A stretch of DNA of 64,000 nucleotides from Pseudomonadota bacterium (GCA_043823065.1 JBDRBB010000006.1:79094-143093), one strand, 5' to 3'. Shown: positions 5,324 through 47,028, counted from the first letter of the stretch. The notes: generated by a model not told the origin, from the letters alone. A program made the numbers and translations.

Positions 5324-6301
5324 CTATTGGTGCAAGGTCTTACGAGCAATAAAATAAAGTAAGAAAAATGGGGGCAGGCCTAAAACTAAAGGCCAGGGAA
5401 AGTGTTGGGTTGGATTAATTAAGCTACAACCACCGCTGCCTTGTTCAGCCTCATAATCAATGCCGCCGGAAAAAACCGGGTTGCCAGCTATCGAAGTATT
5501 GATATCACAAGCATCGCCAATATTATCTTGATCGCTATCAATTTGCTCGAAATTTGGAATAAACTGACAGTTGTCACAAACATCGCCAAATTCATCCAGA
5601 TCCATATCTTCCTGATTGGGGTTAGGATTAACTGGGCAGTTATCAGCGCCGTCTACAATACCATCACCGTCAAAATCATTAGCACAAGCATCGCCTACTC
5701 CATCATGGTCAGTATCAAATTGATCTGGATTGGCAACTAAGCGACAATTATCACAGGCATCTCCTAGACCATCAAAGTCTTCATCAATCTGGGGCGTATT
5801 ATAAACATCAATACAATTATCAACGCGATTTACCTCGTTATCATCAGCTCGGTCATAAAACCCGTCATGATCGCGATCGGTGCAGGCTTCGCCAACTTCA
5901 TCTTCATCATCCGCACGGTCATATTGGTCAGCATTAGCTACGCTTGGACAATTATCTTGTGCGTCAATTACACCATCTCCATCAATATCATCGCAATCAT
6001 CACCTTCACCATCTTGATCCATATCTGCTTGAAAACCAGCTACATCTAAATCACAATAATCTGCCAGGCCATCAGCATTATTATCAATGGTGCAATCGCC
6101 GTTTTTCACAAAAGGGCAGTTATCTGATCTGTCTGCAATATTATCACAATCCAAATCAAAATATTCCACACCGCCGATTGCAATGGTACAATCTTCATCT
6201 GGATCAGCCAAAACTTGGGTGGAAAAAAACAAAACAGACAGGATTGTAAGCCAGGCCAAGAGTTTTCTCATATGTGGATTTCCTAGCATACCTTTTGGCA
6301 A
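5324..6301 (-). CDS. Secreted thrombospondin type-3 repeat protein with a C-terminal Cys-containing sorting-signal-like tail
   Basis: Signal peptide [22 protein letters not shown]. At least 10 repeats of the DNCPxVxNxDQxDxDxDGxGDACD type. C-terminus [33 protein letters not shown]. Confidence 0.8.
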
Positions 6302-6314
6302 AAAGGGAATAAAA

Positions 6315-7256
6315 TTATTTTCTTCTTCTAAAACTAATTAAAGCTAATCCCATTAAAGCCAGCATGGCCAAGCCAAACCAGCTAGTAGGACTATTTCCAA
6401 GAACCATTAAACTACAGCTTTCACCACTTTGGTTATAATAACTACTATTCAAAAGATCTTGGTTTTGGTTTTGAGACTGATTAATATTTTCACAAGCCGG
6501 CCCACTACATCTGGCATCACAAGCATCGCCAAAACCATCACCATCTGTATCTAATTGGTCTTCATTAGCCCGGCGCCAGCAATTATCATCATCATCAATT
6601 ATTCCATCTTTATCAAAATCTGATTCACAGACATCACCTATTCCATCACCATCTTTATCTAATTGATCTGGATTAGAAACGTATTTGCAATTATCACAAG
6701 CATCACCGATACCATCTTCATCGCTATCTTGCTGGCGAGAATTGTAAATTGATGGGCAATTATCAACTGCATCATCAGCACCGTCCATATCAGCATCGGT
6801 GCAAGCATCACCATCTCCATCACTATTGAAATCTGCTTGTTCGGGATTATAATCTTCAGGACAATTATCTACAGCATTAGCAATTTCATCGCCGTCAGCA
6901 TCATCGTCGCACAAATCGCCGATTCCATCAGCATCTGTATCTTTTTGATCTCGATTGGCAAGCAGGGGACAATTGTCTATTTCATCTAAAATACCGTCAC
7001 GATCATCATCATTATCGCAAACATCACCTTGACCGTCATGATCAGTGTCTAATTGATCTGCATTGGCAACGGTCTGACAATTATCCTCGCCATTAACAAT
7101 GCCATCACAATCTAAATCTAGGGTTCGGTTCATACAAGGAAGAACAACTCTGATATCAGCAATATCCGAGATGGTTGGTGGAGCAGCAAACAAGTTAGAA
7201 ACCAAAACTATGGGTAAAATAATTAGCACCAGAAATACAAATATAAGTTTTTTCAT
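6315..7256 (-). CDS. Secreted thrombospondin type-3 repeat protein, paralog of the neighbouring gene
   Basis: Signal peptide [24 protein letters not shown]. Repeated DNCPxxxNxDQxDxDxDGxGDxCD units. C-terminus [36 protein letters not shown]. Confidence 0.8.
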
Positions 7257-17721: not shown

Positions 17722-17730
17722 TATCAAATT

Positions 17731-17804
17731 GTCATTGCGAACGATGTGAAGCAATCCCGTTAGCTTATGTTGTCATTGCGAACGAAGTGAAGCAATCCCG
17801 TTAG
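17731..17804. repeat. Two tandem 33-bp copies of GTCATTGCGAACGA(T/A)GTGAAGCAATCCCGTTAG
   Basis: Direct tandem copy separated by 8 bp. Same repeat family as 16718-16793. Confidence 0.8.
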
Positions 17805-18094
17805 AACCAGTCCTTGCTTAAATCTATCCACTCCTTATTTTCTCTTTCAATAAGCTCAATTTTTCTTTTTCTTGAACCAGCTTTAATCTGTTTTTCACGC
17901 AATATTGCGAATTCTACATCATTACTGGTTTCAAAATATAAAAGTTTATCTATATTGTAGTTAGACGTGAAACCCAAAATCAACTTATTCTTATGTTCAT
18001 ATACTCTACCTTCTAAATCACTTGTTACACCAGTATAGAGGACCGTATTTCTTTGATTAGTCATTATGTAAATGTAGTAGGTTTTGCTGGACAT
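17801..18094 (-). CDS. GIY-YIG nuclease superfamily protein (small stand-alone Uri domain)
   Basis: YYIYIMTNQRNTVLYTGVTSDLEGRVYEHK... Flanked on both sides by copies of the GTCATTGCGA repeat. Confidence 0.8.
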   Translation of the reverse strand: MSSKTYYIYIMTNQRNTVLYTGVTSDLEGRVYEHKNKLILGFTSNYNIDKLLYFETSNDVEFAILREKQIKAGSRKRKIELIERENKEWIDLSKDWF

Positions 18095-18106
18095 TCATGC
18101 CTCACC

Positions 18107-18142
18107 GGGATTGCTTCGTAGCTTACGCTCCTCGCAATGACA
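18107..18142. repeat. Inverted-repeat element copy (GGATTGCTTCG ... CTCGCAATGAC)
   Basis: gggattgcttcgtagcttacgctcctcgcaatgac. Overlaps the 3' end of rmuC. Confidence 0.7.
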
Positions 18143-19241
18143 CACTTGTTTCCTCTGGTGATGCATCTAATTCTGCGGTTACTGGTTGGTCTAACGTTGT
18201 CATGCGGTCATCGAGGCGGCCCAGGCGCTTGTCTGCGCTATCATAGGCTGATGAGGCATTGGAGATATGTTTGCCGATTTTAGAAAAATCATCTTTGAAC
18301 CGGCCAAAATCGTTCTTGATTCTGCCCATTTCTTTGATGATCTCCGCCACAAATTTTTCTACGCGCATCCCCTTCAAACCAAGCAGGATGGTGTTTAGAT
18401 AGGCATAAAAAGTATTAGGTGATACAGGGATAACTTTCTTTTTCATGGCATAAGCAAGTGGCGCATCGGTTTCACCCAGGGTTTCATTGCGGGTAATGAT
18501 ATCATAATAAATATTTTCCGCAGGAATATACATTAAGGCAAAATCAAAAGTGCCCTCGCCTTGGCGGATATATTTGGCAGATTCATTCACTCGCCTTTTC
18601 ACGCTTTCCACAAAACCCCGACGATTGATCTTTCTTTGCTCATCTGTATCTGCGCTTAATGAACGTTGAAAATCCTCCAAGGGAAATTTGGAATCAATGG
18701 GCACCAGGCCGTGCGCGGTCTTGATTACTGCATCAACGCGTTCACCGTCTTTGAAGCTGTATTGCAGCTCATAGGAATCTTGCGGAAGCATTTGTCCCAA
18801 AAGATCAGCTAGAAAAATTTCACCCAAACCACCCCGCATTTTTGGCGCGCGCAAAATATCTTGCAGGCTGGAAATATCTTTACCAACTTCTAAAACGCGC
18901 AATGTTGCTTCTTCAACTTTCAGCATGCGTTCACCTAAAACATTTACTGTGCGCGTGGCATTATCCAGACGTTCGCCCACTGTTTTGCTAACAGTATCTA
19001 GACGCTCGCCAACAGTCTTGTGCGTAATCTGCATCTGCTGAGCATTATTTTTCAGATGTTCATCAAGACGATTTTGCGTATTTTCAAAACTGGAACGAAG
19101 TACATCTTGAAGGGCAATCAACTGTTGCTGGATGTTCGCTGTAGTCTGGTCTTCACTTTTTTTGCGGAAGATTAGATAGGCTAGAGCAAATGCTCCAATG
19201 CCAACTATAATTGTGATTATAATAATGATGGGGGAATCCAT
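18123..19241 (-). CDS. rmuC: DNA recombination protein RmuC family
   Basis: N-terminal TM helix, long coiled-coil, C-terminal RmuC-type nuclease region (FALMYIPAENIYYD...PNTFYAYL). Confidence 0.75.
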   Translation of the reverse strand: MDSPIIIIITIIVGIGAFALAYLIFRKKSEDQTTANIQQQLIALQDVLRSSFENTQNRLDEHLKNNAQQMQITHKTVGERLDTVSKTVGERLDNATRTVNVLGERMLKVEEATLRVLEVGKDISSLQDILRAPKMRGGLGEIFLADLLGQMLPQDSYELQYSFKDGERVDAVIKTAHGLVPIDSKFPLEDFQRSLSADTDEQRKINRRGFVESVKRRVNESAKYIRQGEGTFDFALMYIPAENIYYDIITRNETLGETDAPLAYAMKKKVIPVSPNTFYAYLNTILLGLKGMRVEKFVAEIIKEMGRIKNDFGRFKDDFSKIGKHISNASSAYDSADKRLGRLDDRMTTLDQPVTAELDASPEETSVSLRGA

Positions 19242-19288: not shown

Positions 19289-22285
19289 CTATCTAGCCTG
19301 TTGAGCGGCGCGTTGAAAAGCTTGAGCTATAATAAGCGGGGCTCCTCGCCCTGAATGAGGATCTATTATTTCTCCGCCAACTTCAACAACTATAGGATGT
19401 GGAAATGCAGCTAAAGCTTCTACAAACTCTGCTGCCAATGGAGCTCCACGACCTCTTTCTCTATTCAATCTTCCTGTAACTCTTAATTCCTGAAGAGCTG
19501 GCAACATACTAGTTATTCTTTGTAAAGCTCCTGTAGTTCTGGGATCGCTTCTTGGATTACAACGAATTATTAATCGATCTCCATCTTGTACAAACTCAAT
19601 ACCTGGAGTTCCTCTAAAAATTTCTTGGGAGACAAATCTCTCAAGTGCTGTAAAATCCATAGCAGGGGCACCATCTGCAGTGGGTGTTTGTCCAGCAACC
19701 TCACGCACCCAACCCAAAACTCTATTTACTCTATCATCTAAAGATGCTCGGTCATCGCCCCTTATGACAAGGGTTTGATCAGCATGACCTGGCCACACAA
19801 AATGGATCTCAGAACCTCTTTCTAAACTCGGCAATAAATCACGAAGTTGTCTGCCAAAAGTATCTTCATCCCATAAAATTCTTCCTGCTTCATCTCTGGG
19901 TATTCTAACTTCATGATGTCCAGATTCAACACCTCTATATGCTGCGCCAAAAATATGACTTAACCACTGATCTGCACTGGCTCCCCGAGTTGGAGCAGCA
20001 TCTACTCGTCTACCTAAATCACCATCATCTGGATTTGGTTGGCCTCCGGAGGGTCGGCCAACTGTTACTTGAGGAATCCCTGGGTTTGGTCTAGAACTAG
20101 GCTGAACATCACGTGGGGGTCTTGGTGTTACATCTGGATGATGAGATCCAACTCTGGCTGGACGAGCTGGAGCGTGATCTCTACCATCGGCAATTCCAGA
20201 GCCACTATCACCCCTGCCCCTTCCTGCCGCATGAACTCTGGCCTGGCGCAAAGCTTCATCAGCTTCAGCTTGATCAACTCTTCCGCCTCTTAGCACATCA
20301 CCTGCAGCGCCATCACCACCAACACCTCTAGCTAAAACTCCATGACCTGCTCTAGCTAGGGCAGCTCTCAAATCTCTATTGGAAGCATCTTCGTCATCAT
20401 CATCAACAGCTTGATCAAGGGCAGCAACTATTCCTGAACTTCTTGCCTCTTCGCGTCTGGCTTCTCTAACATCTGCTTCTACATTTTCAATAATTGCTGA
20501 TAAGCCACCTGAAACTGGGGCGCCGTTTAAAGTATACGCTGTGTCTGCTGGAAGCCTACTAAGTTGCGGCCTAGCAGCCCTAAGTGCAGCTAAAGCAAGA
20601 ACTGGATTATCACCAGAAGTAGTAATAGCTACAGTGCTATGTTCGCTATCTGCAGCGCCATGCTCAGCTCTGATAGTTACACCTGATCCTCTTATAGATG
20701 CTATAGCGCTGTTGGCTGCGCTAACGCGGCTATCAACTGTGCGTATTCTAGCTGATCTGGCTGCTTGAGCTGCTTCTCTTGCTTGACGAGCTTCTGCAGC
20801 TGCTCCGGCAGATGCTGCTTCTCGTTCTGCTCTTTGTAAGCGAGTAACCAAAGCTCCGACATTTTCCATTACTTCTGTACCATAACGCAACTGTGTATCT
20901 GGCAACTCAGCAATTGCTGATTGGTTTGCCTGAACAGCTCTTAATACATCTGCAGGATTGCTATCTGTTCTAAAGGTGAGAGAGCTATGCTCTGGAGTAT
21001 GAGAAGCCCTAACATGTCTAGGACCTATCGCACTAGCAACTCTGCCAACCCTAGCTTGCCTTTGTCTGATTGCTTGTTGTCTAGCTTGTTCTGCTTCTCT
21101 TACTTGGCGAGCTTCTTCTGCAGCTCTAGCTGCGGCTGTTTCTCGTTCTGCAACTGCTCTGCGGGCTGCTTCAACCCTTGTCCTTCTTTGTTCTGCTGCT
21201 CTAGCTTCTGTTGCTTCTCTTTCTTCTCTTAATCTTCTTGCTTCTGCAGTTCTAGCTTCTTCACGCTCTCTTGTTGCATCTTGCTGATCTAAGCTGGCAA
21301 CTCTTCTATCAACTATACCTCTAACCGTTTGTAAACGTGCAGCAGCGTCACCAGTAAGCAAACTTCTTTCAAACCTAGCATTAGCTCCAAGTTGCACTAG
21401 AGCTTCTCCAAATTGTTCTGAAAATTCTCCGCCTGGTGATAACAATCTCTGCAAGACTCTTGGTTCTGAACAAGTAATTCTATTATCGTCAGTTACGCTT
21501 ATACCACTAGTTGTTAATCCATTTAAATATGTTCTAGCCTGGGCACTATGATCAACCAAAGGTTCAGAACGTGGTGGTGTTGGTGGTACTGGTGGAGAAG
21601 TAACTGGACGCGCTGGTGATGGCGTCACTGGAGGCGGTGCAGGTGGAGATCGCACTGGAACTGGAGGTGGAGGAGGAGGTTCAACTGGCTCTGGTGCTGG
21701 AGGTGGAGGTGGTGCAGGCTCAACTGGAGGAGCTGGTTCTGCTGGTTCTGGCGTAGCTGCATCATCTGTAGTATCTGCAACCACCTCAGGTTCTTCATCT
21801 GGTTCAACATCATCACTATCAACAACTACATCTGCTTCTTCAGGAGTTGCAGTATCTTCTTCAGCGCCAGCAGCTCTATCACTTCTAGAAGGAGCTGACT
21901 CTTCATTATCATCTATATTAATATCAATCACTCCGCCACTTGGAGCTGGGCCAACATCTCTGCGCGTAACAAAAAATGAACGATTGGCTCCCATTTGCGC
22001 AGGTGTGGCTATTTGATTGCCAGCCATAAACCTGTTTAAGCCCAAAGAGCCATAATTCATGCTTCTGGCAATTAAGCCCTGCATATAACTAAAAGCAGGA
22101 TTAACAGCTGAAAATGAAGTGCCTAGACCGCCAATCATAGCAGCGCCATGGTGAGCAACCGAGCCACTTGTTAAATTGAGCGGACTGCCCACATAAGCCA
22201 TGGTGCTAACTAAGGCTGATAAATTGTTAGTTCCTAAATTGACCACTAAAGCCCCCAATTTGCCCAAAAAATCGTAGGATTTCAC
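19289..22285 (-). CDS. 998-aa low-complexity acidic protein. It has a Gly/Ser-rich N-terminal module, a Pro-rich linker, a long charged ER/K-type helix and a C-terminal folded domain. Paralog of the 575-aa and 500-aa proteins downstream
   Basis: N-terminal NLSALVSTMAYVGSP... resembles the 575-aa protein N-terminus (NSAINSMLTYVSLPP...). PAPPPPPAPEPVEPPPPPPVP linker. REREEARTAEARRLREEREATEARAAEQRR helix. C-terminal PGIEFVQDGDRLIIR resembles the SGIEVVIIRGNGSERILR module of the 500-aa protein. AGA/GCT codon usage is host-like. Confidence 0.6.
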   Translation of the reverse strand: MKSYDFLGKLGALVVNLGTNNLSALVSTMAYVGSPLNLTSGSVAHHGAAMIGGLGTSFSAVNPAFSYMQGLIARSMNYGSLGLNRFMAGNQIATPAQMGANRSFFVTRRDVGPAPSGGVIDINIDDNEESAPSRSDRAAGAEEDTATPEEADVVVDSDDVEPDEEPEVVADTTDDAATPEPAEPAPPVEPAPPPPPAPEPVEPPPPPPVPVRSPPAPPPVTPSPARPVTSPPVPPTPPRSEPLVDHSAQARTYLNGLTTSGISVTDDNRITCSEPRVLQRLLSPGGEFSEQFGEALVQLGANARFERSLLTGDAAARLQTVRGIVDRRVASLDQQDATREREEARTAEARRLREEREATEARAAEQRRTRVEAARRAVAERETAAARAAEEARQVREAEQARQQAIRQRQARVGRVASAIGPRHVRASHTPEHSSLTFRTDSNPADVLRAVQANQSAIAELPDTQLRYGTEVMENVGALVTRLQRAEREAASAGAAAEARQAREAAQAARSARIRTVDSRVSAANSAIASIRGSGVTIRAEHGAADSEHSTVAITTSGDNPVLALAALRAARPQLSRLPADTAYTLNGAPVSGGLSAIIENVEADVREARREEARSSGIVAALDQAVDDDDEDASNRDLRAALARAGHGVLARGVGGDGAAGDVLRGGRVDQAEADEALRQARVHAAGRGRGDSGSGIADGRDHAPARPARVGSHHPDVTPRPPRDVQPSSRPNPGIPQVTVGRPSGGQPNPDDGDLGRRVDAAPTRGASADQWLSHIFGAAYRGVESGHHEVRIPRDEAGRILWDEDTFGRQLRDLLPSLERGSEIHFVWPGHADQTLVIRGDDRASLDDRVNRVLGWVREVAGQTPTADGAPAMDFTALERFVSQEIFRGTPGIEFVQDGDRLIIRCNPRSDPRTTGALQRITSMLPALQELRVTGRLNRERGRGAPLAAEFVEALAAFPHPIVVEVGGEIIDPHSGRGAPLIIAQAFQRAAQQAR

Positions 22286-22566
22286 ACCCCAGGCACATTG
22301 CTTAGGTTTATAACCATTTGATATTACTAGCCTTTAATTAGGCTGAATTATCAAAACTCTTAAGCTTAAGGTATTGCAATTGGTGGGCCAAATTGAGGTA
22401 TTTGGTATAGGGCTTTGGGTATAGAAATCCCTTTTGGGGACGTTACCCCAATCGTTAACTTATTGATATTTTTGGTAAATAACTGGCGAGTTTTAAAAAT
22501 TAAAAACCACTGGCTCAAAAATCTCAAGTTGTCTTTTATTTAACAATGATTTTAGGTAGTTATGGA

Positions 22567-22582
22567 TGGGGGAAACGTCCCC
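22567..22582. repeat. GGGGGAAACGTCCCC hairpin, copy 1, upstream of the DUF4143 ATPase gene
   Basis: Near-identical copy at 23985-23999 (aatgggggaaaacgtcccc). A related hairpin tggggacgttacccca lies at 22433-22455. Confidence 0.7.
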
Positions 22583-22629
22583 TAGCTATGCTGATTTTTG
22601 ACTTTACTTTCGGCAAATTTGCGGCATAA

Positions 22630-23787
22630 TTGCCATATATGTACACAAGAATTCTAAAAAAACCTAAAAATTCAATTTTGCTCTTTGGCCCCAGAGGGAC
22701 AGGTAAATCAACCTGGCTTAAACAATGCTATCCAGATACTCCAAACTATGATCTGTTAAATACCCAAGAAGCCCTTCGTCTTAGCAAAAACCCTTCACTA
22801 ATCTATAACGAACTTGAAACATACCCACCTGGCACTTGGGTTGTACTGGATGAAGTACAAAAAGTACCAGCTTTGTTAGATGAAGTACATCGCCTAATTG
22901 AAAATAAAAAACTAAATTTTGTACTATCAGGCTCTAGTGCCCGCAAACTAAAAAAAGGCGGGGCCAATCTTTTGGCAGGCAGGGCTCAAATGCAACATAT
23001 GTTTCCGTTTGTTTCCAAAGAAGTGGATTTCAAAATAAAAACACCAGAAGTCTTTCGATTTGGAATGTTGCCTATGGCCTATTTAAGCCAAGAGCCAATT
23101 CCATATTTAAGAACTTATGTTGAAGCTTATTTGGCTGAAGAAATTAAGGGCGAGGCTCTAACCAGAAATATTGGAGGATTTGCCCGATTTTTAGAAATTG
23201 CAGCTAGACAAAATGGTCAAATCACCAATGTCTCCAACATTGCCAGGGATGCCCAAGTTGCCAGGCAGACTGTCCAAGGATATTTTGATATATTAGTAGA
23301 TACTTTGTTAGGTTATTGGCTGCAACCCTGGAAATTAAAACGAGCAACAAAACAAGTTGCTCATCCTAAATTTTACTTCTTTGATGCTGGCGTAGCTAGG
23401 GCTTTATCAAACAGACTTCCTTACCCTTTAACCAATGAAGAACTGGGGCCTTTGTTTGAGACATTTATTATTGGAGAAATTCAGGCCTACTTAGCTTATA
23501 CTGAATTAAACTATCCCCTATATTTCTGGAGTAGCCATGACAATGTTGAAGTTGATTTATTATTGGAAACTAAAAAAGGTTTTTTAGCTTTGGAATTTAA
23601 ATCTGCCACAAATTGGAACAAGAGCTTTAATAAAGGGCTAACCCGCATTAGCTCTGAACTTGAAGCAAACAAGGTTCGCTGTATTGGGGTTTATAATGGA
23701 GAAAGGCCAGCTAAGTTTGACTCTATTGAAGTTTTGCCACTTCTAACCTTTTTAGAAAAACTTTGGGCAGGAGATTTGATTGCTTAA
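22630..23787 (+). CDS. AAA+ ATPase of the DUF4143 / COG1373 family
   Basis: Walker A LLFGPRGTGKST, Walker B VVLDEVQ, C-terminal DUF4143-like region. Second paralog at 43434-44651. Confidence 0.75.
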   Translation: MPYMYTRILKKPKNSILLFGPRGTGKSTWLKQCYPDTPNYDLLNTQEALRLSKNPSLIYNELETYPPGTWVVLDEVQKVPALLDEVHRLIENKKLNFVLSGSSARKLKKGGANLLAGRAQMQHMFPFVSKEVDFKIKTPEVFRFGMLPMAYLSQEPIPYLRTYVEAYLAEEIKGEALTRNIGGFARFLEIAARQNGQITNVSNIARDAQVARQTVQGYFDILVDTLLGYWLQPWKLKRATKQVAHPKFYFFDAGVARALSNRLPYPLTNEELGPLFETFIIGEIQAYLAYTELNYPLYFWSSHDNVEVDLLLETKKGFLALEFKSATNWNKSFNKGLTRISSELEANKVRCIGVYNGERPAKFDSIEVLPLLTFLEKLWAGDLIA

Positions 23788-23816
23788 AAAAAACCGCCTG
23801 GAGAGAGGCGGTTCTA
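23784..23816. terminator. Hairpin plus A/T tract (CTTAAAAAAAACCGCCTGGAGAGAGGCGGTTCT), copy 1 of a 30-bp direct repeat
   Basis: Stem CCGCCT/AGGCGG. Near-identical copy at 24793-24825. Confidence 0.55.
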
Positions 23817-23845
23817 TATTGTGGCTTGTGGGGACCTTATAAAGC

Positions 23846-23917
23846 GACCATTGACTATTGACCATGGACCAAAAAACAAGGGGTGTGATTGCGAGGAGCG
23901 TTAGCGACGAAGCAATC
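23846..23917. repeat. Compound small repeats: CCATTGAC palindromes plus GTGATTGCGAGGAGCGTTAGCGACGAAGCAATC
   Basis: gaccattgactattgaccatggacc, then the inverted-repeat family member. Confidence 0.7.
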
Positions 23918-23984
23918 TCGGAAGAGTCGGTATTGTGTATTATTGACACCTAATGGGTGACCCCGGTTTTGTTTGTTAGGAATG

Positions 23985-23999
23985 GGGGAAAACGTCCCC
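23985..23999. repeat. GGGGGAAAACGTCCCC hairpin, copy 2, downstream of the DUF4143 ATPase gene
   Basis: Direct repeat of 22567-22582. Confidence 0.7.
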
Positions 24000-24032
24000 A
24001 AGTATTATTGTCCCCTAGCTTTTATTAGGTCT

Positions 24033-24353
24033 TTACGCAGCAATGGCTTCTTTTCGAACTCTGCTAAACAAAGGTGAAAGATTATCTTTTTGAAATGTAT
24101 ATGGATCAGTAAGGACAATCTGAAGGCGAGGATCAATCTGATAGGCAATTACAACAACTTGTTTTTCATATTTTTCTTTATTTTTTTTAAATACTCTTGC
24201 TACTAAACAAATGTCAATATCGCTATCAGGTCTAGCGTCACCTCTAGCATATGATCCAAATAGATATATTTTTACTTTAGGAAAAGCTTGCTTTTCTAAT
24301 TCAGCTTGAAATTTTGAAATTATTTTTCCAATAGATTTTGCAACCATAGCCAA
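24033..24353 (-). CDS. Nucleotidyltransferase (MNT/MntA-type antitoxin-like) of a HEPN/MNT pair
   Basis: LFGSYARGDARPDSDIDICLV (GSx10DxD minimal nucleotidyltransferase motif). Overlaps the upstream HEPN gene by 34 bp. Confidence 0.75.
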   Translation of the reverse strand: MAMVAKSIGKIISKFQAELEKQAFPKVKIYLFGSYARGDARPDSDIDICLVARVFKKNKEKYEKQVVVIAYQIDPRLQIVLTDPYTFQKDNLSPLFSRVRKEAIAA

Positions 24354-24721
24354 AGCTCCTTGCTTTGCTCTAAATATTTTTTAGCATAATTTTTATTAAC
24401 TTTTTTATAAAAACTTTTCAAATCTTCTGGATATCTAATTTCTAAATTAAATTTATTTATTTGGTCAAACAACTCGATCTGAGCTTTGGTTAACTCCAAA
24501 TTTGCCTTGCCAGCTAAATACAATAAATTATGCGTAAATGGAGGATGCTCTTTAGCAACCTTTGCCACCAAAGCTTTTAATAGTTTTTCCAACATCAAAT
24601 GACAAAGAAATAAACAATAATCATACTTACCGGTTCTATATAAAGACAAGGATACTTCTCTATCATGCTTTGCTGCTTCAAACCAATATTTGATTACTTT
24701 GGATATATCCTTATTAGTCAT
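24320..24721 (-). CDS. HEPN domain protein (HepT-type toxin-like) of a HEPN/MNT pair
   Basis: 134 aa from the internal Met MTNKDISKVIKYWFEAAKHD... The tracked 5' extension translates the terminator repeat. Confidence 0.65.
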   Translation of the reverse strand: MTNKDISKVIKYWFEAAKHDREVSLSLYRTGKYDYCLFLCHLMLEKLLKALVAKVAKEHPPFTHNLLYLAGKANLELTKAQIELFDQINKFNLEIRYPEDLKSFYKKVNKNYAKKYLEQSKELWLWLQNLLEK

Positions 24722-24792
24722 AAATTTAGAATATACTTTGTGCACATTTTTTTCAACTAATAATACCGATCCCTTCGCGGGGGTGGGATTGG

Positions 24793-24825
24793 TTAAAAAA
24801 AACCGCGTGGAGAGAGGCGGTTTTG
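24793..24825. terminator. Hairpin plus T tract (GTTAAAAAAAACCGCGTGGAGAGAGGCGGTTTT), copy 2. Probable terminator of the minus-strand 500-aa gene
   Basis: Direct repeat of 23784-23816. A run of eight T's follows the stem on the minus strand. Confidence 0.55.
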
Positions 24826-24858
24826 AACACACATATTATATATACTGAACAATGATTA

Positions 24859-26361
24859 TCATTCAGGGTGAGTTAAGCTAAAATTACCTAAACTAGGACC
24901 ACTTCCGTCTCCACCAAATATATTGCCACCCATTTCCAAAGTGGCACCTCCAGGAGGAATACTACCCTGGCTTGGCAAATACCTTGAATCCAAGGTCAAG
25001 GTGTTATCACCACCTGCTTCCTCTTCATCTGGCGGCTGTAAAAAATCAACAAAATCTTCATAAGTATATCTAACTGGAGTCTGATCAGCATCTTCATTTA
25101 TTTCAACTGGTTCAGAGCTTCTTTCTTCAATAGGTTCATCTTCTGGCTCCGCTGAAGAAGGTTCAACACTTCCTTCGCGCAAAACTCTTGCTGAACCATC
25201 TCCTCTAATTATTACAACTTCTATTCCTGAAGGCATGTTATCTACAGCTGTTCTTATAGCTTGGCGACGACTAGTTGCCTCATCTCCATCTCCACCAAAT
25301 TCTCTATCAAAAATACGGCGCTGACGATTTTGAAAATCAATAACCAGCCGAGCAGGTTGATCTTCCCCTTGTAATTCAACTCTGAACTGCGCTAAAGGTT
25401 CTGCTTCATTATTAAGTCTAAAACTATTCATTAAAGGTTCTAATCTACCATCCATTAAATTACAAGATGATTGACACTCTTCATCAGCTTCCCTTAAAAT
25501 TCTTTCTGAACCATTTCCTCTAATTATTACAACTTCTATTCCTGAAGGCATGGCATCTACAGCTGTTCTAATATCAGCTCGACGCCTGATTGCTTGTTCT
25601 CCCTCACCACCAAATTCCCTATCAAAGATTTGTCGCTGTGATCTAGAAAAATCAATAATCAAGCGCGTAGGCTGATCTGCTCCTTGTGACTCAAGCCTAA
25701 ATTCAGCTAGAGGGTTTTCTTGACCTTCAACTCTAAAATTTGCTGCTAATGCCTGAAATGCATCTAATCCACCAGTTGTCCTCTGCTCATGGTTAGAAAC
25801 TTCTGGTGCTGAGGAAGCAAACACCTCCAAAGCCAAACCAACAGGGTCATCAATTGGCACTGCATTATGGCTCGCTGCACGGCTAAGCGCCTCGGCATAT
25901 ATACCAAAGCTTTCATCATTACCTTCAAGAATCGCTCTTGCTTCAGCAGTAAAAAGTGAAGGACTATATTCAAATAAAGACATTATTGCATGGCATTGTT
26001 CTAGAACTTCAAGATTAGCATAAGCATCTAATTCAGATTCCTCTAAAATATTATTCTCATTTGAATCACAACTCCAAATATCTGTGCCTAATTGAATAAT
26101 ATCTGCTTGAGTTATTCTGCGAAAGACAATGAGTTCGCCTTGTCCATTGGGGACCTCAATTTCACCTCCAGTAAATAAGTCACCATTGGCAGTTAAAACG
26201 CATTGATTATCTGAATCTAGCAAACAAAATTCACCACTATCACCTGGTTCAATTTGGTCAGTATCAGAATTTTCAATTAATTCTATATTACCTATCCTAG
26301 TTTGCGTTTCATCATCTAGAATAAATAAGCCTTCTTCACTTTGTTGAATAATCAATCCCAT
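24859..26361 (-). CDS. 500-aa acidic protein with an internal tandem duplication of a ~80-aa module, function unknown
   Basis: PLAEFRLESQGADQPTRLIIDFSRSQRQIFDREFGGEGEQAIRRRADIRTAVDAMPSGIEVVIIRGNGSERILRE is duplicated as PLAQFRVELQGEDQPARLVIDFQNRQRRIFDREFGGDGDEATSRRQAIRTAVDNMPSGIEVVIIRGDGSARVLRE. No signal peptide or TM. Confidence 0.65.
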   Translation of the reverse strand: MGLIIQQSEEGLFILDDETQTRIGNIELIENSDTDQIEPGDSGEFCLLDSDNQCVLTANGDLFTGGEIEVPNGQGELIVFRRITQADIIQLGTDIWSCDSNENNILEESELDAYANLEVLEQCHAIMSLFEYSPSLFTAEARAILEGNDESFGIYAEALSRAASHNAVPIDDPVGLALEVFASSAPEVSNHEQRTTGGLDAFQALAANFRVEGQENPLAEFRLESQGADQPTRLIIDFSRSQRQIFDREFGGEGEQAIRRRADIRTAVDAMPSGIEVVIIRGNGSERILREADEECQSSCNLMDGRLEPLMNSFRLNNEAEPLAQFRVELQGEDQPARLVIDFQNRQRRIFDREFGGDGDEATSRRQAIRTAVDNMPSGIEVVIIRGDGSARVLREGSVEPSSAEPEDEPIEERSSEPVEINEDADQTPVRYTYEDFVDFLQPPDEEEAGGDNTLTLDSRYLPSQGSIPPGGATLEMGGNIFGGDGSGPSLGNFSLTHPE

Positions 26362-26395
26362 AATTCCTCTTTGATTCTCTTAATAAAATGATTGA

Positions 26396-28123
26396 TTAAA
26401 TTTGAGTAGCAGCGTCATTATCTAATCTTCTTGCAGAGCTACTTGGCCTTCTTGTACGCGCTGCTCTTTGTAAAATTCCCTGAATTGTTTCAGTACGCTG
26501 ATCTTCTTCAATTTCTCTTAAGTTTTGTTCGCCAAGTAACAACTGTGTTCCTTCTGGCAATCTATTCATAATCTCAATTAATCGAGCTACTTGTGCTTCT
26601 TCATATTGATATCCGCGCTCAAAGCTAAGTTGGATATTGCCATCTTCAGTTCTAGTAATAGTTGCATTTTCTCCAAATACTTCTCTTAGCCCAGTAATTG
26701 CTTGATCAATTGCATCTGGTGCTTCAGGAGCTGGCAAGCCATCTGTTCTGCGTTGATGCAAGCGGTCGATCATTTGGCCCATATATTCTTGAGGAGACAT
26801 TTCTGGATTAGCTAAGCGAAATTCTTCTACGCTGCCACCTGGCCAAGATAGTCGTCCGCTAGTTTCATGGAAAGTTGCTCCATCAATCAATTGGGGCTCT
26901 TGTCTGGCTTCTACTTCTGAACCTTCTTCTCCACCTTCTTCAGCTTCAACATTTCTTAATGCATAAGCTCGGCCATCTTGGATTAAAATTGTTTGTCCTC
27001 CTGTATAATCGTCTGAGCGCTCTCCTTGGCCTGGTGCTGCAACTTGATATACTTGATACTCATCGCCTCCATAAGATTGGTTTTCACCAGTTGGTCTGAG
27101 CATTACATAATCTGCAGGAGCAGCTCTCTGGATATATAGCTGGTTACTGCCACGTCGTCCCGTACCTGCTACAAAAGGAACTTGTCTATACCCACCATCT
27201 TGTTCCAGATAATAATTTTCACCTACTTGATAAATGTTTGTACCTTCAGGAATACTTAATTCTTCAGTATCTCCACCTGTAACATTAAAGACTCGGGCAT
27301 CTTGCCTTTGACCGTCAATCTCTATACTACTATTTTGCTCTCTTGGTTCAACTGTAACATGCGTGCCTCTTGCTGTTGGAGGTCTAGAAAATGGACTGCG
27401 GCCTTCTAATAAACCGCTTCCATAACGCACAAATTCTAAAGCTTCTTCATCATCCATTGGTTCATCGCCAAAACTTCTGGCGATCCAAGCTCCATATTGT
27501 TCTGCCCAATCCTCAGAATCTCTCGCAGGTAGGCCTCTCATTATTTCATCAAATCTAGTGCGATCACCATCTGCTTCGTCTTCAACTCTATCAATAATTC
27601 TTCCAGCTTCCTCTGGAGTATAACCTCGTTCATCTAAATTCTGTACAAGCCGTCTGCGTTGATCAGGTTCTAAAGTGAAATCATCCTCTGATGAATCATC
27701 CACATCTCTATCTCCATCAACATCTGAATCTCCCCAATCGCCACTGCTACTAGGAGCAGGAGGTGGGGGAGCAGACATATATTGCTGGCCTGCTGGCATT
27801 ACTCCGCCAAAACCTGGAGCGCCTGCTTGGCCTGGGGCGGCAATTCCACCAGCAGCAGTGATAGCCCTGGTATATCCTTCCAAAGCATTTTCGCCCAGCC
27901 AACCAGCGCCTTGGTGCATACCTCGCGTAGATTCAAAATTTGCAACTCGATTAAAAACATTCATCATAGCGCCATAACTGGAATCAAAAGAATCAACACC
28001 AGCTGAGCCTCCGCTATATAAACTCAAGCCTTGGCCAATTGAGCTGCCATAACTATGAGCTGGCGGCAAACTGACATAAGTTAACATGCTGTTAATTGCT
28101 GAATTAAGCACTGACCCCTCCAT
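26396..28123 (-). CDS. 575-aa acidic low-complexity protein with a Gly/Ser-rich N-terminal module (paralogous to the 998-aa protein N-terminus) and a Pro-rich linker
   Basis: N-terminal MEGSVLNSAINSMLTYVSLPPAHSYGSSIGQG..., PPPPAPSSSGDWGDSDVDGDRDVDD. The operon is contiguous with flanking genes (20-bp overlap with the 385-aa gene). Confidence 0.65.
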   Translation of the reverse strand: MEGSVLNSAINSMLTYVSLPPAHSYGSSIGQGLSLYSGGSAGVDSFDSSYGAMMNVFNRVANFESTRGMHQGAGWLGENALEGYTRAITAAGGIAAPGQAGAPGFGGVMPAGQQYMSAPPPPAPSSSGDWGDSDVDGDRDVDDSSEDDFTLEPDQRRRLVQNLDERGYTPEEAGRIIDRVEDEADGDRTRFDEIMRGLPARDSEDWAEQYGAWIARSFGDEPMDDEEALEFVRYGSGLLEGRSPFSRPPTARGTHVTVEPREQNSSIEIDGQRQDARVFNVTGGDTEELSIPEGTNIYQVGENYYLEQDGGYRQVPFVAGTGRRGSNQLYIQRAAPADYVMLRPTGENQSYGGDEYQVYQVAAPGQGERSDDYTGGQTILIQDGRAYALRNVEAEEGGEEGSEVEARQEPQLIDGATFHETSGRLSWPGGSVEEFRLANPEMSPQEYMGQMIDRLHQRRTDGLPAPEAPDAIDQAITGLREVFGENATITRTEDGNIQLSFERGYQYEEAQVARLIEIMNRLPEGTQLLLGEQNLREIEEDQRTETIQGILQRAARTRRPSSSARRLDNDAATQI

Positions 28124-29261
28124 TCACGTCTCTAATAAAATCTGCGGCGCGCAGTAAACCTTTGGCCTCACCCACAATTCTTTCTGACAAAGGCAAGGTT
28201 TCGCGAATGCGATCACCTAGGCGATCATTTAGCTCGCGAATTTCCTGCAGGCGATGCTCTACGCGTTGAATGACGTGTTGTTCTAAGATATTTCTTTTAG
28301 CCAGAACTGTTTCCAGGCCTGGATTTGGTTCATTAAAAATAATTAAGGATTCATCTTCTTGCGGAATGTCGCGCACAAAAACTGGTCTGGCCAAAGCTGC
28401 ATCTGAACCACCTTCTTCGCTAGTATCTCCACCTGCATCTGCGCCAACTCCGCCATCTAAAACTCGGCCTAAATTTCCACCTGCTTCAGACTGATAAACA
28501 GCACCGCCCCGACTGGTTCTAGATGATCTGGAACTGCTGCGATCTGAGCCATCTTTCTCTGAATCTTGGCCTCGTCTTACATCTCTTGGTTCAGCGCTTT
28601 CGCCGCGCACTTGTGGTTGCGGCTGCACAAAACGAGAGGCAAATTCTGCTGCTCTGCTAGCATCTGGCTGCCTGGCTTCCTGAGGTAATCTAGGCTGCTC
28701 AGCAGATCTGGGCTGAGGTGTTGCTGGCCTATTTACTTGAGGTTGAGGTCTAGCTTGTGGCGCTCCTTGATTTGGAACTGGATTTGGATTTTGAGGCTGC
28801 ACAAAGTTTGGAGCTTGTTGCTGTTGATTGGGCAGCGTAGAATTATTGCCTGGTTGTATATCTGGCCGGGCCACAACTGCTTGTGGAGTGGCAGCCTGCT
28901 GGGCTGGTTGAAGAGCTCTGCCTCTAGCTGCTAACTGATTCAAACCTCTGGCTTGAGATTGCGCCTGACGCACTGCTTGTTCATTTCGTTTAGCTGCTTC
29001 TTGCTCAACCTCTGGTCGCGAGGCTTGCGTTTGGCGTTCTGGTTGTCTGGATTCAGGAGTGCGGCGCGCACTAATATCTGCAGCTCTGGCACGCTGGGCA
29101 GCACGTTCAGTTCTCTCTGCCCTGGAAAGATTAGTTACCATTTCCTTGGCCACAGTCCTTCTTTGTTCTATATGCTGATCATGGCGTTCTTCGCGGGCAC
29201 GTTCCAGACCTTGTTTTTCTTGCCAACCTTCAGCAAAATGATTTGAACCAACTTTAGACAT
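28104..29261 (-). CDS. 385-aa Gln/Arg/Pro-rich low-complexity protein, first gene of the three-gene minus-strand operon
   Basis: QPQNPNPVPNQGAPQARPQPQVNRPATPQPR region. C-terminal predicted folded segment LIIFNEPNPGLETVLAKRNILEQHV. No signal peptide or TM. Confidence 0.6.
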   Translation of the reverse strand: MSKVGSNHFAEGWQEKQGLERAREERHDQHIEQRRTVAKEMVTNLSRAERTERAAQRARAADISARRTPESRQPERQTQASRPEVEQEAAKRNEQAVRQAQSQARGLNQLAARGRALQPAQQAATPQAVVARPDIQPGNNSTLPNQQQQAPNFVQPQNPNPVPNQGAPQARPQPQVNRPATPQPRSAEQPRLPQEARQPDASRAAEFASRFVQPQPQVRGESAEPRDVRRGQDSEKDGSDRSSSRSSRTSRGGAVYQSEAGGNLGRVLDGGVGADAGGDTSEEGGSDAALARPVFVRDIPQEDESLIIFNEPNPGLETVLAKRNILEQHVIQRVEHRLQEIRELNDRLGDRIRETLPLSERIVGEAKGLLRAADFIRDVNGGVSA

Positions 29262-41158: not shown

Positions 41159-41286
41159 CTGACCTCTCGTAGCTTCTGAATGACTGATAACTAAACAGTT
41201 TAGAAAGTTGTATAAGTGGTGAAATCGTGTTCTGTCAATAGCATTTAGTGGTTAAGATGCAGGATTATGCTTGTCATGATTGGTTT

Positions 41287-41325
41287 GGGGGTCAAGTATT
41301 TACTCTTCACTCTTGCATAGATGCG
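41287..41325. repeat. Solo copy of the IS terminal inverted repeat (GGGGTCAAGTATTTACTCTTCACTCTTGCATAGATGCG)
   Basis: Identical to the left end of the IS at 42391-42430. Confidence 0.75.
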
Positions 41326-41399
41326 GGTCCGATCAAGGTAAATAGGTTACAAAAAGTACAAAGCACATAGGTAACACATGATAAGATGGCATAGATAAG

Positions 41400-41640
41400 G
41401 AGGTTTCTATGCCATGGGAGGAACGAAATATCATGAGTGAACGTATGAGCTTTATTAGTCGTTTAGAAACAGGAGAACGAATGACTGACCTATGTCGAGA
41501 GTATGGAATATCTCTGGAATACTAAAGGAGTGGGAAGCAGGCTTAAGTGTTGGCGAAGTAAGCCGCAAATATGGAGTTACGGACAAGAGTCTTTACAGAT
41601 GGCGACTTACAATATCTCTCGTCCGTCTGGTTTTTTTTGT
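41400..41640 (+). pseudogene. Fragments of IS481-like and IS3-OrfA-like transposase N-termini (HTH regions), disrupted by stops
   Basis: MPWEERNIMSERMSFISRLETGERMTDLCREYGIS* then ILKEWEAGLSVGEVSRKYGVTDKSLYRWR. No intact ORF. Confidence 0.55.
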
Positions 41641-41658
41641 TTTTTTCTTGTTCTTATA

Positions 41659-42051
41659 CTATAACCTTCTTGCTTTAATAGATAGATTTTTTGGATTAAA
41701 GGTAAACTCAAATAGATTAAGAAGATTCATGCCAATCAGACCATCTATTTGATATTTGGGAGGCAAATCTAGGGCTGCAATTTCTATATTTTCAATTCTT
41801 TCATTAAATACTTCAATACAAGGGATTACAAGTCTATAACCTTCCTCTCTTCCTATAACAGAGTCAGTTGAAAAAAGTTTTGTAGCATCCTTAGCGCTAA
41901 AACCTAGCGCATCAACTCTGGCCGTTCTAACAATAGTCATTGCTGCGCCAGTATCTACAATAAACCGACCCGTAAAAGATCTGGCCTTACCAAAAATTTT
42001 AGCTGAAATAAAAGGAACTCCTTTGATAAGCTCATATACTACATCTGCCAT
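41659..42051 (-). CDS. Retropepsin-like (clan AA) aspartic protease
   Basis: FIVDTGAAMTIV (DTGA active-site motif), ~130 aa. Overlaps the upstream 82-aa gene by 13 nt. Confidence 0.7.
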   Translation of the reverse strand: MADVVYELIKGVPFISAKIFGKARSFTGRFIVDTGAAMTIVRTARVDALGFSAKDATKLFSTDSVIGREEGYRLVIPCIEVFNERIENIEIAALDLPPKYQIDGLIGMNLLNLFEFTFNPKNLSIKARRL

Positions 42052-42287
42052 AACACAGGTCCTATAGGATTTTCTGGAAGAACATCTCCTGTAAAACGAA
42101 TATCAAAATCATTTTCAGGGATAGCTTTTAAGCTAGCCGTAAATTCTGATTCATCAGAGGAGTGGGCAACAACATCGCCTATGATTTCACCAAAAGGAGC
42201 TTCTGATTCTTTTCTGTAATGCGCAATAGCCACCCACTCATTAGGAAAACTTTTTTTAATCTCTTTCCACGTCATTTTGTTTCCCAT
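42039..42287 (-). CDS. 82-aa hypothetical protein, co-transcribed partner of the aspartic protease
   Basis: MGNKMTWKEIKKSFPNEWVAIAHYRKE... 13-nt overlap suggests translational coupling. Confidence 0.5.
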   Translation of the reverse strand: MGNKMTWKEIKKSFPNEWVAIAHYRKESEAPFGEIIGDVVAHSSDESEFTASLKAIPENDFDIRFTGDVLPENPIGPVLWQM

Positions 42288-42390
42288 AATAAACCTCCTA
42301 TTTCTTGGGATATATAAACATATTGCTCACAAAAAAACAATTGGAGATATTTAAGCGAGATGGTGTTTGCCGACAATTTGGGTTTGTTTG

Positions 42391-43410
42391 GGGGTCAAGT
42401 ATTTACTCTTCACTCTTGCATAGATGCGTGAATATATTCACTTGCCTCTGGTTTTGTTTTTACTTCAGCACTCATGATTCTAGATATCCGTGCTGGTTTT
42501 AGATTAAATATCTTTGAGAGTTCATCGTAAGTAAGTTTTAGATACTGCCTGTAGTAATATATTGCCATTGCCCTATTTTGCCGACCAACTAAACTGTTAG
42601 CCTGGGTCAAAGCATTCCAACTTGTATCAAAAGCTTCACATAAGACCTTTTTTAGCTTTTTTGCTGACACTTTTTTTATATTACAATCTCGATATTCCAG
42701 CTTTTCTTTATCTATATCTTTAACAAAATTCCATTTAATCCATTCTTCAAAATTATCGCTACTCAATACTGATGGCCAACTAAATCCATCTAGCCTTTTT
42801 TCAAGTCCTTCTGGAACCTCATTCATCACAAATTCATGTAATCTCAATCTTGATCTATTTTTTCTTTTGCCAAAATAGGAAAGAATATAGTTGGTAGTTA
42901 ACCATTTCCTGTCATCACTTCCTAGATAATCTCTATGCGAACTCCATTTGTACTTTTCTGGAAATTCAACTAGGCCTGCTTTTATTGGATTTCGATGAAT
43001 ATAACGAATTAACTCAACAAGATATGCATCTTCTTCCACTAGTATAGCTTTATATCGTCCTCGAAATATATGACCATCACGCTGATGTTGACGATTAAAA
43101 CGCTGGGTATAAACCCCATTAATATGCCTCATTGCCCTGGAAAGATTAGCAAGAGGTGTTTCAATAAGCATATGATAGTGATTGGGAAGTAGAGCTAAAG
43201 CATGTACTTTCAGCTCCCAAAGTTTGATTGACTCAACTAGAACATTAATAAAAGTTTCATAATCCTTAGGTTGCGTAAAAATATTCTGGCGAGCATTTCC
43301 ACGGTTCATTACATGATAAAATGCACCTTCATACTCTATTCTTAGTGGACGAGACATATGTCTTGTTTAGATCAATAAATAACAAAAGTAAAGAGTAAAT
43401 ACTTGACCCC
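42391..43410 (-). mobile_element. Insertion sequence (~1020 bp) with 23-bp imperfect terminal inverted repeats, encoding a Y1 (IS200-like HuH) transposase fused to a DnaA-C-like HTH domain
   Basis: Left end GGGGTCAAGTATTTACTCTTCAC. Right end GTAAAGAGTAAATACTTGACCCC (reverse complement, one mismatch). A partial copy lies at 47386-47526 and solo terminal inverted repeats at 41287 and 44875. Confidence 0.75.
42410..43357 (-). CDS. Transposase: IS200-like Y1 HuH domain plus C-terminal DnaA domain-IV-like HTH
   Basis: IEYEGAFYHVMNRGN...LLPNHYHMLIETP (HuH motif), catalytic Tyr region, C-terminal AMAIYYYRQYLKLTYDELSKIFNLKPARISRI. Confidence 0.75.
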   Translation of the reverse strand: MSRPLRIEYEGAFYHVMNRGNARQNIFTQPKDYETFINVLVESIKLWELKVHALALLPNHYHMLIETPLANLSRAMRHINGVYTQRFNRQHQRDGHIFRGRYKAILVEEDAYLVELIRYIHRNPIKAGLVEFPEKYKWSSHRDYLGSDDRKWLTTNYILSYFGKRKNRSRLRLHEFVMNEVPEGLEKRLDGFSWPSVLSSDNFEEWIKWNFVKDIDKEKLEYRDCNIKKVSAKKLKKVLCEAFDTSWNALTQANSLVGRQNRAMAIYYYRQYLKLTYDELSKIFNLKPARISRIMSAEVKTKPEASEYIHASMQE

Positions 43411-43433
43411 TATTTTTTCCCCTATTTTTCTAT

Positions 43434-44651: not shown

Positions 44652-44810
44652 TTTAACGCTACAATTAATTTAGTCAAGACCAAATTAACGTTTAACATTA
44701 AAAAGGTTGTTTAATTTACTTAGGTCTCTATACAACTAAAATAACAACTTGTTATTATTATGATTTTAAGTTGGAAACTTTTGCTCCGTCTGACATTTTC
44801 TGACATTTTT

Positions 44811-44860
44811 CATTATATCAAAGAGTTATAATCAGGGGTTAATGCCTAAAATGCCTGATT
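44811..44860. repeat. 50-bp direct repeat, copy 2
   Basis: cattatatcaaagagttataatcaggggttaatgcctaaaatgcctgatt. Confidence 0.75.
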
Positions 44861-44874
44861 CCAGTAAATAACAA

Positions 44875-46995: not shown

Positions 46996-47028
46996 TTTTG
47001 TTATGCCTCAGTTATATGGTAGTGACTT

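Follow-up and report, generated by a model that had tools for sequence, protein, structure and literature searches.

HEPN/MNT pairs, in which a HEPN protein is encoded next to a minimal nucleotidyltransferase (MNT), were predicted by Makarova et al. in 2009 to be mobile two-gene modules, and the compact gain and loss of these modules in syntenic loci was documented by the same authors (PMC2701414). In the type VII systems that have been characterized, the MNT protein AMPylates and neutralizes the HEPN RNase; the HepT-MntA comparators are those of Shewanella (SO_3166/3165), Aphanizomenon and Legionella (PMC7641770, PMC11586414). PDC-S01, an ATPase fused to a PD-(D/E)XK domain, is reported to be the fourth most common prokaryotic defense candidate and to be unvalidated (PMC12988326), and DUF4143 belongs to the PD-(D/E)XK superfamily (PMC3424549). 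The subject of this report is a 64 kb stretch of DNA from a Pseudomonadota bacterium, referred to as the window, which has a GC content of 39.9% and derives from a metagenome-assembled genome (MAG). A DUF4143 ATPase gene of the PDC-S01 type and a HEPN/MNT pair lie side by side within it, in an accessory block at 22286-24858. The HEPN/MNT pair is bracketed by two direct copies, T1 and T2, of a 36-nt repeat, designated T, that contains a terminator hairpin and the last nucleotides of the DUF4143 gene. The explanation that we favor, with a probability of roughly 60%, is that the two genes are independent modules and that the HEPN/MNT pair arrived later, as a ~1.0-kb insertion beside the DUF4143 gene that duplicated the terminator.

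Modules that lack a recombinase of their own are known from Acinetobacter plasmids (pdif modules), as IMEX at dif and as CIMEs, which derive from integrative elements. The HEPN/MNT cassette resembles these in being a ~1-kb module of a kind that often carries toxin-antitoxin genes, in having no recombinase, and in having boundary sites of ~30 bp with dyad symmetry. It differs in that T has no Xer/dif-like sequence, the sites are in direct orientation, the repeat includes sequence of the target gene, and no partner recombinase was identified; a dif-like reading of T was rejected on sequence features. Integron cassettes are likewise small, often carry toxin-antitoxin or defense genes and have imperfect palindromes between them, but the present arrangement has mixed gene orientation and no intI. 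An attC reading was also discarded: the RYYYAAC/GTTRRRY boxes were absent from both strands of T, the cassette has its own promoter-like site, and no integrase domain was found in the scanned open reading frames (ORFs).

The original prediction held that a 2.6-kb block splits a cluster of paralogs, separating a 998-aa gene from an operon encoding proteins of 500, 575 and 385 aa. The block itself was borne out by the limits of the four ORFs, which occupy 19289-22285 and 24859-29261. The paralogy was not, since neither BLASTP, phmmer --max nor a profile built from the internal 105-aa tandem repeat of the 500-aa protein detected significant similarity of the 998-aa protein to the 500-, 575- and 385-aa proteins. 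The block therefore divides neighboring orphan genes rather than demonstrable paralogs. Its principal features and borders are as follows.

19289-22285, minus strand: 998-aa ORF
22286-24858: accessory block, flanked by the 998-aa ORF (start side) and the 500-aa ORF (stop side)
22639-23787, plus strand: ATPase with AAA_14 and DUF4143 (PD-(D/E)XK-type) domains, 382 aa; Pfam 2.5e-33 and 1.1e-21
23778-23813: T1, in which the DUF4143 ORF ends (10 nt, stop codon included), followed by an A-tract and hairpin
24033-24347, minus strand: MNT minimal nucleotidyltransferase, 104 aa; PF01909, 9e-14; PADLOC PDC-S09, 8e-15
24320-24721, minus strand: HEPN protein, 133 aa, PF05168 type, 3e-17; first gene of the pair
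24728-24756, minus strand: HEPN-MNT promoter-like site found by promoter scan, TTGAAA, 17 nt, TATTCT
24787-24822: T2, starting 36 nt past the stop of the 500-aa gene and carrying the relic GATTGGTTAA
24859-26361, minus strand: 500-aa ORF (locus tag ABH859_02375), last gene of the 385/575/500 operon

A 30-bp element had been reported at 23784 and 24793 and was found there exactly as described, its true extent being 36 nt. The two direct copies, GATTG[C/G]TTAAAAAAAACCGC[C/G]TGGAGAGAGGCGGTT, were identical at 34/36 positions and abruptly edged by unrelated flanking sequence. The 30-bp element had two matches in the 64 kb at up to 3 mismatches, compared with none in 100 shuffles, and the 36-nt sequence was absent from plasmids, phages, viral contigs and the GTDB representative genomes, 596 Gb of which contained not one exact match. 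When read on the minus strand, each copy formed a hairpin followed by U8, a canonical intrinsic terminator. The T1 hairpin had a folding energy of -14.9 kcal/mol (z = -5.0), while that of T2 was weaker (-9.3 kcal/mol), its closing pair being opened by one of the two mismatches. Located 219 nt past the end of MNT, T1 takes in the DUF4143 stop codon. The DUF4143 and HEPN-MNT transcripts converge on it, and it is predicted to terminate both of them bidirectionally; the minus strand of T2 is the predicted terminator of the 385/575/500 operon. The possibility that the repeats are simply ubiquitous terminators found no support within the window, where the remaining terminator-like hairpins had stems unrelated to T. 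Consequently, T is not the standard terminator of this genome.

The order of events can be read from the left 10 nt of T1, G ATT GCT TAA, which encode the end of the DUF4143 protein (...GDLIA*). This C-terminus, ...LWxG(D/E)(I/L)I plus or minus one residue, proved native to the family when 14 homologues were aligned. The relic GATTGGTTAA in T2 matched it at 9/10 positions outside the hairpin and has no ORF attached; by our own calculation the chance probability of this match is ~3e-5. It follows that the ancestor of T2 contained the DUF4143 3' end, and hence the DUF4143 gene and its terminator predate the duplication. As a separate observation, CCGATCCC...GGGATTGG at 24765-24792 can pair as an 8-bp hairpin adjoining T2, making use of the GATTGG relic.

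The segment between the T copies (23814-24786) consists of the promoter-like site, HEPN, MNT and a 219-nt tail. The HEPN-MNT coding part has a GC content of ~30%, compared with ~40% in the surroundings and the window. Insertion is the best reading of the T bracket because the DUF4143 3' end is contained in the repeat, the cassette is low in GC and it has its own promoter-like site. We propose that the DUF4143 gene came first and lay convergent with the 385/575/500 operon, with one bidirectional intrinsic terminator between them. The ~1.0-kb cassette, comprising the promoter, HEPN, MNT and a repeat-rich tail, would then have inserted right beside this terminator, leaving a 36-bp duplication made up of the final 10 nt of the DUF4143 ORF and the terminator. 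Thereafter T2 would end the upstream operon and protect the cassette from read-through, while T1 would end both the cassette and DUF4143. The route may have been a single crossover between the resident T site and a circular cassette with a matching copy, mediated by short homology or by a recombinase acting in trans. Recombination at T itself seems to us a reasonable, if somewhat less than even, proposition, and insertion with a target duplication from staggered cuts is less likely than that and rather doubtful. With regard to the latter, the features of a transposon-type target-site duplication were lacking: the repeat is 36 nt with 2 mismatches, there are no inverted repeats at the ends of the insert, and no transposase lies inside it. 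The folA-apaH insertion of ccdO157, considered as a precedent with a 77-bp target duplication, was dropped, as ccdB overlaps apaH in E. coli Sakai and there is no such duplication.

Because the source is a MAG, an assembly artefact was considered, in which strain variants or unrelated regions became joined in the contig at a common repeat. The T copies differ at 2 positions, however, and their longest exact run of 15 nt is shorter than assembly k-mers; the flanking genes are intact on either side, and the terminators are located where they would function. We regard an artefact as scarcely credible.

Flanking repeats were surveyed at 13 module loci and in 3000 random gene-sized intervals of the same DNA. 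For additional loci, the viral contigs gave 1 DUF4143 locus and the plasmids 2 distant matches, and a final search for contigs yielded short ones only. Strong flanking direct repeats were present at 3/13 loci, namely the window (score 62), L085 (104) and L002 (94), while 9/3000 random intervals (~0.3%) scored 50 or more. The repeats of these three loci were mutually unrelated in sequence.

At L002, a metagenome contig from JGI, a DUF4143 gene 70% identical to that of the window lies between 72-nt direct repeats (86% identical; 5556-5627 and 6868-6939) that represent the 3'-terminal part of the sigma-54 regulator/kinase gene lying upstream. The downstream copy maintained an open frame to a stop codon, and 7/10 differences were synonymous changes at third positions (p = 0.02). 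Hence both copies were coding sequence while they diverged, a pattern that favors incoming DNA that carried a homologous copy of its target, as in an att-type or short-homology crossover, over a fresh staggered-cut duplication.

The homologous HEPN-MNT pair at L085 had an inner 57-nt direct repeat (55/57) nested within an outer 42-nt hairpin pair (95%). A third copy of the 57-mer (70%) was located upstream of a DUF4143-like gene whose product is 44% identical to the second DUF4143 paralog of the window. The elements of this locus were at 609-832, 2631-2672, 2857-2913, 3699-3755, 3773-3814 and 6158-6214.

Several points weigh against insertion of the cassette at the terminator, 1) we infer it from one genome, with no empty site or polymorphic allele, 2) the 36-nt element could have more copies beyond the visible 64 kb, 3) the window ORFs of at least 120 aa include no integrase or Xer gene, 4) the sole transposase of the window is Y1/IS200-like and is tied to a different repeat family, 5) to our knowledge, 36 bp is too long for the target duplications of known transposases and short for homologous recombination, 6) a circle with the same DUF4143 end and terminator presupposes a donor that was already so arranged, 7) 4/6 complete HEPN-MNT loci and 5/7 DUF4143 loci had no significant flanking repeat, and 8) given their third copy and outer pair, the repeats at L085 behave as a local family rather than a scar.

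A related possibility is that T is the core site of a tyrosine recombinase acting in trans, and that the cassette is excisable and non-autonomous, in the manner of Xer-dependent IMEX/pdif modules and CIMEs. T has inverted arms around an asymmetric 8-bp spacer, AAAACCGCC-TGGAGAGA-GGCGGTT(TT), and its direct copies flank a 1-kb module devoid of a recombinase; pdif modules often carry toxin-antitoxin genes; and the L002 repeat, a gene 3' end with synonymous divergence, is what would be expected of the attL and attR sites of elements that target gene ends. An intrinsic terminator has the identical geometry, however, and pdif sites flank their modules in inverted rather than direct orientation. T is without attC features, no recombinase gene was found in the window, and a single recombinase cannot account for all three loci since their repeats are unrelated. 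On balance we think this improbable.

The block contains other repeats, of families that had also been noted in the original prediction. All of the further families named there were present, each with other copies in the window. Those within the block were the following.

22436-22449: h1 (GGGGACGTTACCCC), inverted copy of the GGGG hairpin
22568-22582: h2 (GGGGGAAACGTCCCC), direct copy of the GGGG hairpin
23846-23871, plus strand: tandem heptamers GACCATT/GACTATT/GACCATG
23883-23921, plus strand: solo hairpin of the GTCATTGCGAGG...GAAGCAATC family, a dispersed REP-like repeat
23984-23999, plus strand: h3, third GGGG hairpin, 34 nt past the MNT stop

The hairpin GGGGGAAA(A)CGTCCCC was thought to bracket the DUF4143 gene with its own pair of direct repeats. 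The direct copies h2 and h3 do exist, but the bracket did not hold up, as there is a third, inverted copy and five homologous loci are without the hairpin. The family had 3 matches in the window compared with 0.01 expected. Similarity between h2 and h3 extends over ~36-40 nt at ~80%, and h1 and h2 form a 147-nt inverted pair (22436-22582) with 47-nt arms that are 74% complementary; neither value was reached in 1000 shuffles. The 147-nt unit, which lies in the spacer between the divergently oriented 998-aa and DUF4143 genes, folds into a long hairpin (z = -3.9). It looks like a MITE/REPIN-type element, and the family shows the combination of a singlet and an inverted pair by which REP/REPIN families are recognized.

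We do not read h2 and h3 as a scar for three reasons. First, h3 falls inside the insert if the T pair marks the HEPN-MNT insertion. Second, the conserved DNA at the five DUF4143 loci starts ~40 nt upstream of the ATG, and nothing beyond that point was common to the five. Third, the inverted pair plus singlet resembles a REP/REPIN/MITE family. Moreover, the repeat pairs, which had been called nested, interleave (22568 < 23778 < 23984 < 24787) and therefore cannot both be scars of simple serial insertions. Thus, of the proposed serial insertion of small cassettes, the serial acquisition of two modules and the terminator duplication at HEPN/MNT stand, while the nesting and the hairpin bracket do not. 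The GGGG hairpin was not found in 1.3 Mb of retrieved loci. At L085, TTTGGGGACGTTT, the GGGG hairpin core, recurs with only marginally significant similarity in a nested palindrome of 224 nt situated 2.2 kb upstream. A 12-14 nt sequence common to the window hairpin and this palindrome, TTGGGGACGTT, was set aside as marginal (~1/500 shuffles).

The 219-nt tail of the cassette is a patchwork of the small repeats of this genome, consisting of the heptamers, the GTCATTGCGAGG hairpin and the third GGGG hairpin. The tail of the window cassette showed no significant homology to that of L091, its closest MNT relative, the score being reached by 71/1000 shuffles. Heptamer arrays (GACCATT/GACCATG/GACTATA) also occur at a distant intergenic site, 2681-2756. 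The GTCATTGCGAGG...CGAAGCAATC family had 8 matches in the window (16718, 16768, 17731, 17772, 18105, 23883, 47031 and 47085) and was present in 15/85 unrelated loci (including L005, L006, L008, L034, L053 and L083) of Nitrospirota, Elusimicrobia, 'Deltaproteobacteria' and other MAGs. It is therefore a cross-phylum REP-like motif, and no Rfam family matched the hairpin. The best explanation for the GGGG hairpins, the GTCATTGCGAGG hairpin and the heptamers is that they are small dispersed repeats that populate accessory intergenic DNA, not insertion scars. In the Rfam scan of the window only two tRNAs reached the gathering score; matches in the block to CbSR1, Phe leader and Hrs13 were far under threshold and were treated as noise.

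The GTCATTGCGAGG hairpin family is associated with a gene for a 97-aa GIY-YIG nuclease (17801-18094, minus strand) between NAD kinase and RmuC (region 17729-18143). This gene is bracketed by GTCATTGCGA...GAAGCAATC hairpins in inverted orientation, with two tandem copies at 17731-17804 and one at 18105-18143 that provides the last codons of RmuC. In relatives such as L008 the gap between NAD kinase and RmuC is ~70 bp and has no GIY-YIG gene. The unit looks like a small selfish element associated with the hairpin family.

These findings raise the question of whether T1 and T2 belong to a dispersed family of terminator-like repeats that settled independently, in which case the bracketing would be coincidental. 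The window has at least four small dispersed repeat families; repeats also bracket the GIY-YIG gene and a second DUF4143 gene (43434-44651); the flanking repeat at L085 has its third copy; and both T copies are precisely where terminators are needed. SPRITE of S. pneumoniae, REP/BIME and Correia elements (reviewed in PMC3184786) similarly place repeat copies in intergenic DNA beside variable genes. In contrast to such families, T has only two copies in the 64 kb even at 3 mismatches, 1 kb apart, and it includes 10 nt of the conserved coding sequence of the neighboring DUF4143 ORF. The unrelated stems of the other terminators in the window and the lack of an exact copy of T in the representative genomes also argue against this possibility, which we judge to be unlikely. 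The GGGG hairpin and GTCATTGCGAGG families fit the SPRITE/REP/Correia class better than T does.

The second DUF4143 gene is part of another accessory islet, at 41280-47525, that contains a transposase, the second ATPase, a 484-aa orphan and a prepilin-type protein.

42410-43357, minus strand: Y1/IS200-like transposase (Y1_Tnp), 315 aa
43434-44651, minus strand: second AAA_14-DUF4143 ATPase, 21% identical to the first

Five copies of the repeat GGGGTCAAGTATTTACTCTTCACTCTTG are scattered through this islet. Its borders are marked by identical 140-nt direct repeats (42391-42530 = 47386-47525), within which the transposase gene has its 3' end, and the second ATPase is bracketed by 44-nt direct copies at 43373 and 44862 (89% identical). 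A HipA-like kinase gene at 62184-63122 (PF07804, 1.9e-45) is a further accessory gene of toxin type.

The transposase suggests another possibility, that the hairpin-flanked genes are the cargo of non-autonomous, PATE-like elements of the IS200/IS605 type mobilized in trans by a Y1 (HUH) transposase. The window does encode a Y1_Tnp protein, its gene and the second DUF4143 paralog are each bracketed by one repeat family, and both modules of the block are flanked by direct hairpin repeats. However, the Y1-associated repeat, GGGGTCAAGTATTTACTC..., is unrelated to T and to the GGGG hairpin, and no common cleavage-site or guide motif was apparent. In addition, the T and h pairs interleave, both T hairpins would be internal, and only by chance could the end of the element have contributed the conserved final codons of DUF4143. 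Such an origin is very improbable.

Homologues of the two modules in other genomes speak to their mobility. The DUF4143 homologues (63-72% identical) were wedged tightly between unrelated housekeeping genes in five loci. HEPN homologues, 66-75% identical, occurred in six other unrelated contexts and were always followed by MNT with a 28-nt overlap; their neighbors included a MazG-like gene, MlaE, CDP-alcohol phosphatidyltransferase, NAGPA and a prolyl isomerase. The housekeeping proteins on the contigs of the module homologues were merely 24-33% identical to those of the window, and the GC content of the hosts was 45-58%. Both modules are, as judged by their high identity across distant hosts and their differing contexts, apparently compact mobile units, and the data support the view that the block is accessory DNA made up of two independent horizontally mobile modules in succession.

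The ATPase matched PADLOC PDC-S01 over its full length (1e-56). Its Walker A motif, GPRGTGKS, was invariant in the homologue alignment; it has thousands of homologues, with a best non-self identity of 72%, and ends in the native ...LWAGDLIA. By homology it is a candidate defense gene. The AAA_14 plus DUF4143 architecture is the same as in PDC-S01 (COG1373) and nothing sets this ATPase apart from the family. What goes beyond the PDC-S01 description is the tight single-gene insert and a palindromic promoter region that travels with the gene.

22603-22638, plus strand: predicted DUF4143 promoter/operator identified by promoter scan, -35 TTTACT, -10 CATAAT

The short distance of 8 nt from the end of the -10 box to the ATG points to a leaderless or almost leaderless mRNA, and the boxes overlap the palindrome GGCAAATT..AATTGCC. 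In an ungapped alignment, this ~36-nt upstream element was conserved in six unrelated contexts, the window (22603-22638) and five others (L001 142-181; L002 5649-5688; L086 1526-1565; L088 2961-3000; L090 2961-3000), with compensatory changes in the arms (GGCA..TGCC versus ATCA..TGAT). The palindromic element is a candidate autoregulatory operator that travels with the DUF4143 gene.

In the HEPN/MNT cassette, the HEPN 3' end and the MNT start overlap by 28 nt, and the -10 box of the promoter-like site ends 6 nt before the ATG, a geometry kept in six homologous loci. The MNT protein has the GSxxxG...DxD motif. It scored 38 bits against the NCBIfam MntA equivalog NF047752, below the cutoff of 60, and was marginally similar to the solved MntA structure 5yep (E 8e-4). 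The 133-aa HEPN protein contains no R with an H at +5 to +7 and thus lacks the Rx4-6H RNase motif, and no solved structural relative of it was found; the residues invariant across 18 homologues were H41, E45, K46, T63, H64, R96 and Y97. The locus resembles HepT-MntA in having small HEPN and minimal nucleotidyltransferase genes with overlapping ORFs, in the GS...DxD motif of MNT, in its patchy, context-independent distribution, and in its compact insertion into otherwise unrelated loci. It differs in gene order, HEPN preceding MNT, in the PF05168/COG2250 type of HEPN without Rx4-6H, and in an MNT that falls under the MntA cutoff with marginal structural similarity, HEPN having none. On homology grounds, the genes probably form a toxin-antitoxin-like pair in which the nucleotidyltransferase would neutralize the HEPN protein. 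As it is only a distant relative of the characterized systems, we class the pair broadly as a HEPN/MNT module and not as a member of HepT-MntA.

The genes that border the block offered little for comparison. None (0/4) of the 998-, 500-, 575- and 385-aa proteins had a Pfam, NCBIfam or PADLOC match, and the sole match of the 500-aa protein among 5.8 billion proteins was itself. All four have long low-complexity stretches rich in Pro, Ala, Arg and Glu, as well as internal tandem duplications (25173-25323 versus 25488-25638, 82%; 20763 versus 21084, 81%), and GC climbs to 47-52% within parts of these ORFs. The closest relative of the nearby RmuC (72% identity) was in a Pseudobdellovibrionaceae MAG, in which an SNF2 helicase occupies the position of the 998-aa gene. 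Among RmuC relatives synteny was kept on the NAD-kinase side only and stopped at RmuC. Searches with the 500-aa protein and for RmuC synteny found no database genome with the flanking orphan genes and consequently no empty site for comparison.

The components of the block are of known kinds and the event is one of ordinary genome plasticity. The practical gain is a cleaner annotation, with a PDC-S01-type ATPase and a COG2250-type HEPN/MNT pair placed between orphan genes, and the relative order of their arrival can be read from the 36-bp duplication. A duplicated terminator can insulate a new toxin-antitoxin cassette from read-through, which could plausibly account for the tolerance of insertions at terminators. 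The wider point is that long, locus-specific flanking repeats recur around very common modules in unrelated genomes. It is conceivable, if quite a long shot, that PDC-S01 and HEPN/MNT modules spread by an unrecognized route that targets gene 3' ends and terminators and leaves locus-specific duplications of 36-72 bp with no recombinase in the insert. Such a route could use host recombination functions or the product of the AAA+/PD-(D/E)XK ATPase gene itself; bearing on it are the frequency of flanking repeats (3/13 loci versus ~0.3% of random intervals), the tightness of the inserts and the synonymous divergence at L002. If general, the phenomenon would bear on how defense and toxin-antitoxin genes that lack a recombinase move between genomes.

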